A DNA stretch of 64,000 nucleotides from Planctomycetota bacterium (GTDB lineage Bacteria; Planctomycetota; UBA1135; UBA2386). The stretch lies in NCBI GenBank assembly GCA_036274315.1, contig DASUFY010000243.1, positions 1,329 to 65,328 on the forward strand. Reading direction: 5' to 3'. A program made the translations under genes and the position numbers. Of the stretch, positions 47,090 through 51,780 are shown in pieces; positions within the stretch are counted from its first letter, which is position 1; the number at the start of each line of letters is the position of its first letter. The notes under the pieces are model-generated. The model worked only from the letters and a program-made list of their open reading frames with translations, made no database searches and had not been told where the DNA came from.

Positions 47090-48454
47090 TCACCGCAGCC
47101 ACCCGATCGATGCCCGCATCGAGTTGCTGACCAAGATCCCCGCGGCGTTGGCGCCAGGCGCGAGCACGAGTGCCTGCTGGTAGAACGGCGTGCCGACCAC
47201 CGCGGGATCGGCCGGGATGGGCTGTTCGAACGTGACGCGGGTGTGGGTGCCGACGCCGAGCTGCAACAACTCGGGAGCAACCCGCAGGTCGCACGACGGC
47301 ATACCGAGCATCGACAGATCGAGCGGCAGCGGCGTCGCGCCGAAGGACTGGTCGCTGAGCCCGGTGATCAGCACGGCAACCGACAGCGGCGCGAGCGAGA
47401 CGGTGACGCCCAACGTGCCGCCGAGCCAGGCGCGGGTCCAGGACTCGGTCAAGCCGAGCACGGGCGCGTTCGCGACCGTGCAGCCAGCACCGTGTGGCGC
47501 GTACATCGCTGGATAGAGGTCGGTCAGGTAGGCGACGCTGCTCGTGGCGCTCTGGTACGAGTAGAAGCGGTTGCGCACGGGGTCGTGGCAGCCGGCGTAG
47601 ACGACGGGATTGAGTCCGTTGAGCACGTAGTTCATCGGCAACCACGCGGCGCCTTCGCGCATGCGCAGGCTCGGCGGGCTGAGACCCTCGGAGTAACGAA
47701 TCATCTTGCCCCGATGCGCGTCGAACCACATGAAGGTGTTGCCGAGCGGGCTGCCAATCGGGCCACTTGGAGGGTACTCGACCCAACCGTCGGACTCGTT
47801 CCAATCCCAAGTCAGCGCCTCCACGGCGATGATATTCCCCGACGAACTCGACGACTCCGTTCGTCCGAACAGGACGAGCTTCTTCTGTGCCGCATCGTAC
47901 CCGAACGCGTGGTACCGATAGGCGCGATGCACCATTGGGCTGATCGGTGGGCCACCGGTCGTCGATACTGGAGACCAGTTTGCTCCATCCCACTCATGCA
48001 GTTCGGCTCCGCCTGCTCCAGCAACGAAGACGACCACTCGCTTCCTGCCGCGATGGTACGTGAGATGGTAACCGAAGTAGGGTGGGTAGACGTACGGCGG
48101 AACCGCCCACGTGAAGAACGGGACGGCGCCGGCATTCGTCCAATTGACACCGTCCCATTCCCACACGCTTTGATAGTAGTCGCTGATGGCCACCGTCACG
48201 CCGCGCCGCTCGTCGAACGCGAATTGCCACCCTGCATTGGGTGGCATGTTGGCGCTTGGCACCTGTTGCCACGACGATCCGTCGAACTCCCATGTCGCGT
48301 TGACGTTGTACCCGATGAGACGGTCTCTATGGGAATCGTAGGCGGCAGCATCACACAGGGGCGCCGGCGTCGTCATCCATATCGTCTGACCGACCGCTCG
48401 ATCCACGCCTGCCAGCAGTACCGCGATCCCAACCCACAGCGTCGGAACTTTCAC
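47090..48454 (-). CDS. Secreted Kelch-like beta-propeller protein with the shared C-terminal module
   Basis: The GTG start overlaps the S8 protease stop (GTGA). Signal-like VKVPTLWVGIAVLLAGV. W-x-(F/W)DG-x-x-W repeats (WEFDGSSWQQV, WEWDGVNWTNA, HEWDGANWSPV). C-terminal module HGAGC...PLPLDLSMLGMPSCDL...PIPADPAVVGTPFYQQAL. Confidence 0.8.
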   Translation of the reverse strand: MKVPTLWVGIAVLLAGVDRAVGQTIWMTTPAPLCDAAAYDSHRDRLIGYNVNATWEFDGSSWQQVPSANMPPNAGWQFAFDERRGVTVAISDYYQSVWEWDGVNWTNAGAVPFFTWAVPPYVYPPYFGYHLTYHRGRKRVVVFVAGAGGAELHEWDGANWSPVSTTGGPPISPMVHRAYRYHAFGYDAAQKKLVLFGRTESSSSSGNIIAVEALTWDWNESDGWVEYPPSGPIGSPLGNTFMWFDAHRGKMIRYSEGLSPPSLRMREGAAWLPMNYVLNGLNPVVYAGCHDPVRNRFYSYQSATSSVAYLTDLYPAMYAPHGAGCTVANAPVLGLTESWTRAWLGGTLGVTVSLAPLSVAVLITGLSDQSFGATPLPLDLSMLGMPSCDLRVAPELLQLGVGTHTRVTFEQPIPADPAVVGTPFYQQALVLAPGANAAGILVSNSMRASIGWLR

Positions 48455-51400: not shown

Positions 51401-51780
51401 CGCGGGGCCGACCTCAGACCCTGGACTGCCGCATGGGGTAGCTGGACCGACAAGGCGCTGAGGATCCAGTAGTGATGCTCGACGGTGCCCCCGGCGTTGG
51501 CGACCCGCTGGGAGATCGCAGCCTGATCGGTTGCAGCAAGCTGCCGCAGCGTGGCCAGCGCGGCCTGTCGCCCAGCCAGCGTCGGCGAGGCCCCGATGGC
51601 CTGCAACTCGGTCTGCAGCGCATAGCCTCGATCTTGCAGCTCGATGATCCATCGCTCGGTCCCAGGTGCGCTACCGGGAATGCCGTGCTCCTGCTGGGCC
51701 ACGAGACTCAGCGAGCCGATGGTGACGGCGAGGCACGCAGCGAGCGCCTGTGTGTGTGTGTGTGTGTGTGTGTGTGTCAT
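48451..51780 (-). CDS. Secreted subtilisin-like (S8) serine peptidase with a large C-terminal extension and the shared C-terminal module
   Basis: ATG at 51780 with a GGTGGAG SD. M(TH)4T tract, then signal peptide. Catalytic Asp VAVFDTGID, His HGTAMASIIAG, Ser GTSEAAAQVSGAAALY. Only the 3' 3330 nt of the 1913-aa ORF are real. Confidence 0.9.
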   Translation of the reverse strand: MTHTHTHTHTQALAACLAVTIGSLSLVAQQEHGIPGSAPGTERWIIELQDRGYALQTELQAIGASPTLAGRQAALATLRQLAATDQAAISQRVANAGGTVEHHYWILSALSVQLPHAAVQGLRSAPRVAHLVPVKARRANDAEAVRRRATGAARVSRRSTDETVALGGEMRPLGPPPPIDVSTNEFNHNVDAAWTILGGGGAQYRGAGARVAVFDTGIDEDVDGVPGTVLPHPAFIDNAGATRIDGIVRAQDIGTGNHADINICTIAGGVPYVGATGPFGFRPGRHNQAAAHGTAMASIIAGRAYTVGPVGNPVTSSRIGHVPDARLIDVACSSYEGLDARSRWIFTDDGYLGGIERLREYILANRPAGQTSAYVHVANLSIGGEPYPYHMISRALDALARDEDILIVTSCGNDWDTTEFSNGFYHGLAVGAVHAREPIDPMQGEPANFAFVPIVQSSPGPLFGDIERLYPDVCATGAGPGTPELVSGQWQRRFYYPRNFEDPQARDACLEMPGVDVLDISANASYPTDGYNVSPTRYNLGTSEAAAQVSGAAALYRGYRASQTTPASAEETRAAILLNVLGTYTQADGTAAEPAAQHTYTNRNRMGVGYVRDDLLAQFAVRDPQIYPLAQTAGLSVLNPQVDIAYDTLPGGKRYGVVACWRRALVDPGGDAVGEGDLPNIDLEVWYQGTLLARSASSANSYERLVFMAPWPSGGALAGVTLRLRLLSVPIGNQIIPVQVVARGFDTELDPQTTVPDPVHAATGQVTSAPAGAGCTMTSKAWQIDRIVPTGYQDAYGSAARAFTDGGNPGGQAYYYTHNGYDHGFDLEKVNGNAVPGMIHRVTIDVGEMGGPIDIGGLAFRTWAPFAPTNDMNVVVQMWEGPTVGGPTVWFAPPGGAITVASTVLRAPGPIGAEPRLDRFVVSVPFTTNFNYAGVSQLHIWIGTSTGSPFVVDGINDGSPSPYRSQYFYPNALGGSPLVATMEGFVPVIGLIAASVPAPRTPLLEVFGEPWSGTSVSTQFDWRLSQLPAAPQVWVLAFGTWQDPPALVPSCSIWLSNAQVLASGASAGGFAFGTISLPAGSVHEQFGLQMLLYPDRYSNALRISVGGGL
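51749..51777. repeat. Dinucleotide microsatellite (TG)14T, equal to A(CA)14 on the coding strand, immediately after the S8 protease start codon
   Basis: Counted directly from the sequence line at 51721-51780. Confidence 0.95.

Follow-up and report, generated by a model that had tools for sequence, protein, structure and literature searches.

The present analysis concerns a module shared by secreted proteins that are encoded in a 64-kb window, i.e. the whole stretch of 64,000 nucleotides taken from contig DASUFY010000243.1 of a Planctomycetota bacterium (GC content of ~70%). Four coding sequences (CDSs) of this window are labelled A, B, C and D, and a fifth is labelled E. Our sequence comparisons indicate that the module found in A, B and D is a true domain that these proteins have in common, with three clear copies, that the protease C carries a divergent but real copy, and that E is a divergent member of the family whose membership is borderline. 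The family is unnamed, as it is absent from Pfam-A, NCBIfam, the sequences of the PDB and the searched literature, and the most fitting description is that of a new family belonging to a well-known class of domains, namely beta-sandwich tags at the C-terminus of secreted proteins. The features on which this conclusion is based are the following, the E-values of the module copies being those of a hidden Markov model (HMM) built from independent members, as described below.

7034..7999, plus strand: CDS A, 321 aa; signal peptide, a passenger without Pfam match, then the module
7613..7996, plus strand: module copy in A; begins with YGTGC and ends with ...SDGMEIVLGT; E-value 1.6e-8, profile positions 7-132
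47090..48454, minus strand: CDS B, 454 aa; signal peptide, a propeller-looking passenger with WxxDGxxW repeats, then the module
47093..47497, minus strand: module copy in B; HGAGC, GMPSC, PIPADPAVVG and the end SNSMRASIGWLR; E-value 2.2e-23
48451..51780, minus strand: CDS C, 1109 aa; signal-peptide-like N-terminus, S8 subtilase, an extension of ~430 aa, then a divergent module
50041..51162, minus strand: catalytic domain of the S8 peptidase of C; Pfam Peptidase_S8 over residues 207-580, E-value 1.3e-12
about 48454..48774, minus strand: divergent module copy in C; keeps the conserved Cys and the terminal SNALRISVGGGL; E-value 3.1 with the HMM alone
57900..59666, minus strand: CDS D, 588 aa; signal peptide, two NIDO-like regions, then the module
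57903..58289, minus strand: module copy in D, the canonical form; GLDLTFLGMPGCFGY ... LPIPNN ... Q ... SNGTEITVGF; E-value 1.3e-44
35888..37384, plus strand: CDS E, 498 aa; signal peptide, module-like domain, then a Kelch beta-propeller (Pfam Kelch_6, 1e-36)
35951..36262, plus strand: divergent N-terminal module-like domain in E; lacks the Cys and SNG, keeps the LPNDAAFNG...Q segment; E-value 1.1e-3
48451..48454, minus strand: GTGA overlap of the stop codon of C (TGA) with the start codon of B (GTG), read from the sequence
51749..51777, minus strand: perfect dinucleotide repeat, (AC)14.5, immediately following the ATG of C and encoding THTHTHTHT

The four CDSs reported in the initial annotation are present as described and coding, the reading frame being in each case the one with the highest third-position GC content (GC3 of 0.78-0.93). 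The peptide strings quoted there were found in the translations, and the module coordinates agree with ours to within about 15 nt. The central claim, that four proteins end in a common module, could be questioned on the basis of pairwise comparisons: BLASTP aligned the C-termini of A-D, A-B and B-D colinearly, with E-values of just 0.05-0.4, which are not significant, and C aligned to none of the other three. Such values would be compatible with a compositional or chance likeness among high-GC proteins, with no real shared module behind it. Profile methods gave a very different result. A word-indexed search with the last 122 aa of D yielded seven relatives, and a profile (A1) composed of A, B, D and six of these was searched exhaustively against 1.84 billion cluster representatives, of which 6,907 matched at an E-value of 1e-3 or lower, 818 at 1e-10 or lower and 9 at 1e-30 or lower; the match was C-terminal in nearly all of the top 153. 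An independent HMM, made of 143 database members only and omitting the window's own A (which is identical to the database protein P0059), was then run on all six-frame open reading frames (ORFs) of the window. It recognized D, B and A with the E-values listed above, i.e. down to 1e-44, as well as the ORF 35711..37381 (CDS E) at 1.1e-3, while the score of C (3.1) was not significant. Together with a column-shuffle and a reversed control for C (see below) and a confidently modelled fold, these results leave practically no room for chance similarity, which was ruled out.

The copy in the protease C required a more sensitive comparison. Compared alone with the family profile, C obtained an hhalign probability of 14%, with the alignment running over the full length and in register. 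No homologue was detectable for its last 174 aa in the word-indexed search, and its last 519 aa retrieved just two homologues, P0154 and P0155, among 5.8 billion proteins. The C-terminus of P0155 looks more canonical (...LPC...SLPLSA...Q...LSNGLCIRAGG), and the alignment of C with P0155 (A5) matched the family at 80% probability (E-value of 1.5e-5, score of 33.8); here too the alignment was in register along its full length, and it placed the conserved Cys and the terminal SN(G/A)L..v.vG in matching columns. The 300 column shuffles of A5 scored 10.6±2.0 and at most 18.7, so that none (0/300) reached the real score, and the reversed alignment scored 12.3. A C-type profile of three sequences, the third recovered from locus L030, reached 78%, and phmmer with the tail of C matched the module of P0004 at 7.7e-4. 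Of the signature residues described below, C keeps the C, the Q and SNA. The claim of a common C-terminal module thus holds for all four proteins, in the case of A, B and D by the independent HMM and in that of C by profile-profile comparison (~80% once its homologues are included) and the shuffle null.

CDS E was not listed in the initial annotation, and its copy brings the number in the window to five. Residues 22-125 of E matched the family at an hhalign probability of 80% (E-value of 1.4e-5), and phmmer aligned this domain with the module of P0045 at 1.4e-4 and with that of P0040 at 2.9e-4. The P, G and Q of the signature residues are kept, and the Cys and the SNG end are gone. This copy directly follows the signal peptide, at the other end of the protein from where the module, normally C-terminal, is found.

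Database searches support the novelty of the family. In the four proteins, the S8 domain of C was the sole Pfam match, and neither Pfam nor NCBIfam recognized anything at any C-terminus. No Pfam family (Pfam-A, 2025 copy) and no NCBIfam 20.0 model covers the module in 88 full-length members, and 46 isolated modules compared with Pfam at an E-value of 10 or lower gave no recurrent match and no Pfam carbohydrate-binding module (CBM). A search of all PDB chains with the sequence profile returned 0 matches, tblastn against plasmids found no match, and no description of the domain was encountered in the literature searched.

The fold was predicted with AlphaFold2 (AF2). The D module (9 sequences) was modelled with a predicted local distance difference test (pLDDT) of 80, and the B module (46 sequences) with a pLDDT of 88 and a predicted template modelling score (pTM) of 0.83; the latter model is all beta, a two-sheet sandwich of about nine strands. 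A Foldseek comparison, proposed in the initial annotation together with the modelling, was run against the PDB and returned generic sandwiches only (template modelling (TM) score of 0.3-0.58, i.e. below 0.6, sequence identity of 8-18%, E-values at or above 6e-4), including the GM2 activator, MG domains of C3 and alpha-2-macroglobulin, nanobodies, the beta-GRP N-domain and a porphyran CBM. Among these, the Ig-like/E-set sandwiches (alpha-2-macroglobulin/C3 MG, GM2 activator/NPC2 ML and the beta-GRP N-domain) are the best neighbours of the module models, and the likeness is one of fold class, not of family (TM score of 0.3-0.57, identity of 8-18%). The module is a genuine domain family of ~125 residues, which according to the models is all beta and folds on its own as an Ig-like sandwich.

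A beta-sandwich at the very end of Sec-exported proteins whose passengers vary recalls the C-terminal domains (CTDs) of the type IX secretion system (T9SS), and the module might be a far-diverged representative of one of the known systems for C-terminal sorting, i.e. a T9SS type A/B CTD, PEP-CTERM, LPXTG or an autotransporter translocator. The module had been judged to resemble none of these, and our analysis bears this out. No NCBIfam or Pfam model of these systems matched the four proteins (E-value of 1 or lower) or the 88 members (0.01 or lower); this includes the T9SS CTD models TIGR04183/PF18962 and TIGR04131/PF13585, for which the 46 isolated modules were also negative at an E-value of 10 or lower (Pfam only). 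There is no transmembrane segment in the C-termini SNGTEITVGF (D), SDGMEIVLGT (A), SNSMRASIGWLR (B) and SNALRISVGGGL (C), no C-terminal transmembrane helix, and neither a PEP nor an LPXTG motif. The autotransporter translocator PF03797, a barrel of at least about 250 aa, had no Pfam match in the four proteins, and 125 aa, modelled as a soluble sandwich, are too few for such a barrel. No T9SS CTD structure appeared in the top 50 Foldseek matches, none of PorK/L/M/N, SprA (Sov) and PorU/V was seen in the 64-kb window and the short related loci, and T9SS is not known from Planctomycetota. NCBIfam matches to GldK/GldJ in two members stem from their FGE-sulfatase domains; those of P0048 and P0053 score 7.7e-57 against the T9SS PorK/GldK model, which most likely reflects superfamily-level similarity and is no sign of a T9SS. 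A divergent version of a known system is close to refuted, and we regard it as very improbable.

The known systems are nevertheless instructive as analogies. T9SS CTDs of type A and B, found in Bacteroidota, are likewise small beta-sandwich last domains of Sec-exported proteins, present once per protein, with many paralogues per genome and unrelated passengers including proteases. On the other hand, they measure ~80-100 aa, whereas the module has ~125 aa and ~9 strands, shows no sequence match to them, belongs to a Planctomycetota lineage and can be internal (the P0048 family). The PEP-CTERM/exosortase and LPXTG/sortase tags are, like the module, lineage-restricted and carried by large paralogous sets of exported proteins, but they are tripartite signals of ~25-35 aa (motif, transmembrane helix, basic tail), whereas the module is a folded domain of 125 aa with no transmembrane segment. 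Dockerins of cellulosomes are single, usually C-terminal tags that bring varied secreted proteins to a common surface scaffold non-covalently. The logic of the proposed tag is similar to that of dockerin-cohesin pairs and of T9SS CTDs, with homology to neither. Dockerins are helical, Ca-binding and built of duplicated EF-hand-like units, while the module is all beta and has no repeat.

The alignment of the 143 members gives the consensus ...pL.L.asglP.LGttf.Lt.snvPa.sPl....fG.t..nPGiDLt.iGMPGCfaYTn.dLg...fpvagGtgt..LpIPNnPaL.G..L.aQa.Afs..NpLGL.tSNGl.ltvG. and the signature (Y/H)GxGC (optional) ... lP.LG ... PG.DL..iGMPGC ... IPN.P.L.G ... Q ... SNG.....G-x-COOH. The Cys of GMPGC is present in all 143 sequences, the Gln in 142 and the residues of the Ser-Asn-Gly triplet in 132-137, and several Pro and Gly positions exceed 80%. 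A, B and D keep all signature residues, with SDG in A and SNS in B. The upstream (Y/H)GxGC motif, reported earlier for two of the proteins, was confirmed in A and B, and it occurs in only ~30% of members; as ~35% lack a second Cys inside or just before the module, the Cys of GMPGC has no equally conserved partner. Mature proteins with even (37) and odd (36) numbers of Cys are nearly equally frequent, counts that give no indication as to the pairing of the conserved Cys. This Cys can be missing from more divergent members found in the fetched loci. A G-x-G-C motif also opens a different upstream region in many members (YGTGC at residues ~243-247 of D, GAGC at ~772-775 of C), where it is followed by ...FYE.F....DL, as also in the A4 consensus, and it is therefore not specific to the C-terminal module.

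In 146 of the 153 top hits the module ends 0-2 residues before the stop codon, usually with SNG-x5-G-x. Relaxing the domain threshold did not reveal a second copy in any of the 153 proteins, each of which thus contains exactly one. A, B, C and D each carry one copy as the last domain, and E does not, its copy being N-terminal. Where the module is not terminal, five cases have the appearance of frameshifted or chimeric gene predictions. Of 93 full-length members, 63 have a signal-peptide-like N-terminus according to a crude heuristic, as do A, B and D. C has a hydrophobic, signal-peptide-like stretch at its N-terminus, yet fails the heuristic because it lacks K/R.

Such an anatomy has to be weighed against the possibility that the module is a passive structural unit that caps and stabilises the protein, acts as a spacer or mediates oligomerisation, with neither targeting nor ligand specificity. 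The generic Ig-like fold, the predominance of Gly and Pro among the strongly conserved positions, which fits turns, and the fact that the module evolves at the same rate as its passengers would all agree with this. However, a Cys found in every aligned member without an equally conserved partner, a near-invariant Gln and Ser-Asn-Gly, and the constant spacing from the free C-terminus argue for a specific interaction, and spacer domains usually repeat within a protein, which the module never does. We therefore find a purely passive role unlikely.

The passengers are diverse and mutually unrelated. Among the 88 full-length members, Pfam identified NIDO in 11, and Laminin_G_3, Rax2/DUF5122/Kelch/RCC1/FG-GAP propellers, LTD, FGE-sulfatase and DUF4623 in one to three each (the Kelch-repeat model in one), to which NCBIfam adds HAF repeats; no glycoside hydrolase was found. 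The S8 peptidase of C extends this list, and the earlier observation that the passengers differ is valid across the family. The specific labels proposed for two of them, NIDO-like for D and Kelch-like for B, fared less well, as Pfam finds neither domain in D or B and only other family members match, among them, for NIDO, members with the D architecture. Some passenger types of the family (HAF repeats and NHL) carry PEP-CTERM sorting signals in other phyla, which agrees with a tag role.

As for taxonomic distribution, 26 loci from species-representative genomes were recovered with a D-type alignment (A3), which sampled only D-like members. All 26 are Planctomycetota metagenome-assembled genomes (MAGs), a few of them labelled Brocadiaceae or Kuenenia. 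Members named by NCBI come from Planctomycetota, Planctomycetes or Phycisphaerales MAGs, save one partial sequence labelled Crocinitomicaceae, and are called 'hypothetical protein', except for one DUF4623 and one FGE-family annotation, both derived from the passengers. Judged from these sequences, the family appears to be restricted to uncultured Planctomycetota and is very large there. Module genes are often arranged in tandem, two or three in a row, in other MAGs (L013, L017, L018, L021 and L022). D and its neighbours (61784-63691, 59674-61794, 54919-55896 and the gene of an FHA-CAP protein) are syntenic in L003, L006, L007 and L008.

The reading that we consider most likely, although we would not put it at an even chance, is that the module may be a tag peculiar to this lineage, by which proteins are directed to the cell surface or retained in the envelope. 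The suggestion is based on the single copy per protein, the fixed C-terminal end and the diversity of the passengers, many of which are of adhesion type, on the signal-peptide-like N-termini of most full-length members and the expansion of paralogues, and on the conservation of polar residues (C, Q, S, N) for which a simple scaffold would have no use. In this model, the proteins would be exported by Sec first, and the module would then work as a common address or retention tag. A shared envelope partner, either a receptor protein or an envelope polymer, would recognize a conserved face of the sandwich that includes the near-invariant Cys, Gln and Ser-Asn-Gly beside the free C-terminus, and this binding would hold the varied passengers at the cell surface. 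The S8 protease C would be one cargo of the tag, not the processing enzyme of the family. A sorting, anchoring or display role, as originally proposed, is thus compatible with the anatomy of the family (single copy, C-terminal end, signal peptides, tandem paralogues), and is weakened by the copies that are internal (P0048) or N-terminal (E).

These copies belong to several observations that weigh against a targeting or retention tag. In P0048 and P0053, from Phycisphaerales MAGs, the module is truly internal, being preceded by a NIDO-like region and followed by FGE-sulfatase domains (one in P0053, two in P0048), and their cluster comprises 25 member sequences, individual members of which occur on up to 34 contigs. 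The divergent copy in E is N-terminal, and a strictly C-terminal export signal would tolerate neither arrangement. Moreover, no secretion, sorting or attachment machinery was found near the module genes in the window and the 26 related loci, and a survey of recurrent neighbour genes in 28 loci revealed just the local synteny of the D neighbours and no candidate. The module bears no lipid or transmembrane anchor, and its junction with the passenger shows no conserved motif for cleavage. In D orthologues the identity of the module (41%) is comparable to that of the passengers (44%), so there is no extra conservation. Finally, some of the fold neighbours are glycan-binding proteins (the beta-GRP N-domain and the porphyran CBM, TM score of 0.43-0.58).

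The last point leads to the main rival explanation, according to which the module is a lectin- or CBM-like ligand-binding domain that attaches diverse secreted proteins to something outside the cell (for example a particle of polysaccharide, a prey cell or the surface of a host) instead of to the envelope of the producer itself. The weak resemblance to glycan binders, which besides the beta-GRP/GNBP3 N-domain and the porphyran-binding CBM includes an accessory domain of BuGH158, would be understandable in this case, as would the tolerance of internal and N-terminal positions and the lack of dedicated machinery nearby. The structural matches, however, are all at the level of a generic fold, and no glycoside hydrolase or other carbohydrate-active enzyme (CAZyme), the usual setting of a CBM, occurs as a passenger among the 88 members. 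Binding modules are also commonly arranged in tandem, whereas this one is never duplicated within a protein (153/153). Furthermore, many passengers are already binding or adhesion modules (NIDO, LamG, Kelch, FG-GAP), which leaves the role of the anchor to the C-terminal end. Binding to an external target seems to us a serious but doubtful alternative to an envelope tag.

A more far-reaching version of the tag model is that the module is the recognition signal of a new, Planctomycetota-specific export or surface-attachment pathway, in which the Cys of GMPGC or the C-terminus adjacent to SNG would be the site of covalent linkage or processing. We consider this distinctly unlikely.

C deserves separate comment, since its presence among the module proteins had raised the question of whether it is their processing enzyme or a fellow cargo. 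Its peptidase domain is well supported (PF00082, 48.1 bits versus a cut-off of 21.8), and the S8 motifs VFDTGID, HGTAMAS and GTSEAAA are readable. A general processing role does not stand up to a comparison of numbers, as the C-terminal half of C has 2 homologues and the module at least 6,907 representatives; the family of C is too small to serve that of the module. In addition, C is missing from the syntenic locus L003, where D and its neighbours remain. The cargo interpretation holds, and we conclude that C is a cargo with a dedicated partner, B.

The partnership is visible in the gene arrangement. The stop codon of C and the start codon of B overlap in GTGA, and a Shine-Dalgarno-like GGGAGGTGG lies just upstream of the GTG start of B. 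The only two contigs with homologues of C, L029 and L030, have the same 4-nt overlap (at 1612-1615 and 2641-2644, respectively) followed by a homologue of B (BLASTP E-values to B of 6e-15 and 8e-28). C and B in that order therefore form a conserved two-gene unit, and the stop/start overlap indicates that they are translationally coupled. The absence of the pair from L003 had led us to consider a lineage-specific insertion without conserved linkage, an idea that was dropped because the pair and its overlap are kept in L029 and L030. B, C and the FHA gene at 45609-46868 are all absent from L003, where the FHA-CAP gene directly abuts the GNAT gene, and the GC content of the B-C pair (47090-51780) is 0.645-0.675 versus ~0.71-0.74 in the surrounding genes. 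This lower GC content, together with the absence from L003, suggests insertion or loss of this block.

The (AC)14.5 tract at the second codon of C is the only such microsatellite in the window, and gain or loss of one AC unit would shift the reading frame of C. To judge from the sequence, the tract may act as a phase-variation switch, resulting in phase-variable surface proteolysis. An 8-9-bp tandem repeat (GAGCTTCAA-like) is located just upstream of C at 51869-51903, in the putative promoter region.

The B-C pair is flanked by genes of two FHA-domain proteins with Yop-YscD_cpl/FHA N-termini (45609-46868 and 51945-54854, both on the minus strand). The second, of 970 aa, has a CAP/SCP (cysteine-rich secretory protein) domain at its end and is also found next to D in related MAGs. 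Besides these, the window encodes a transglutaminase-like protein, a TIG protein, an RND pump, a hybrid histidine kinase, a tricorn-like protease, MeaB and a GNAT protein. It also encodes a Ser/Thr protein kinase with a fused C-terminal FGE-sulfatase domain (10471-13113, minus strand), homologues of which are present in six fetched loci, and a class II fumarase (Lyase_1 and FumaraseC_C; 37495-39474, minus strand) fused to an N-terminal cyclic-nucleotide-binding domain, an uncommon architecture. A tandem repeat with a period of 85 bp (2.6 copies, 78% matches) lies near the start of the window at 507-726, with shorter nested repeats at 574-630. Rfam and tRNA scans of the window were empty.

Planctomycetota have an unusual, still debated cell envelope and very large sets of unannotated secreted proteins. 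The S8-protease/propeller pair, with its hypervariable-looking (AC)n tract, constitutes a second, small lead. The module family itself merits at least inclusion in Pfam or NCBIfam, so that thousands of 'hypothetical proteins' could be annotated. If the new pathway considered above were real, these thousands of proteins would be its cargo set and the system a functional counterpart of the T9SS or exosortase; a dedicated pathway reading the tag would be categorically new. A single domain carried by at least 6,907 protein clusters offers a handle to define the surface and secreted proteome of lineages that have never been cultured, and likewise a starting point for phylogenetic profiling aimed at the partner or machinery by which the tag would be read.

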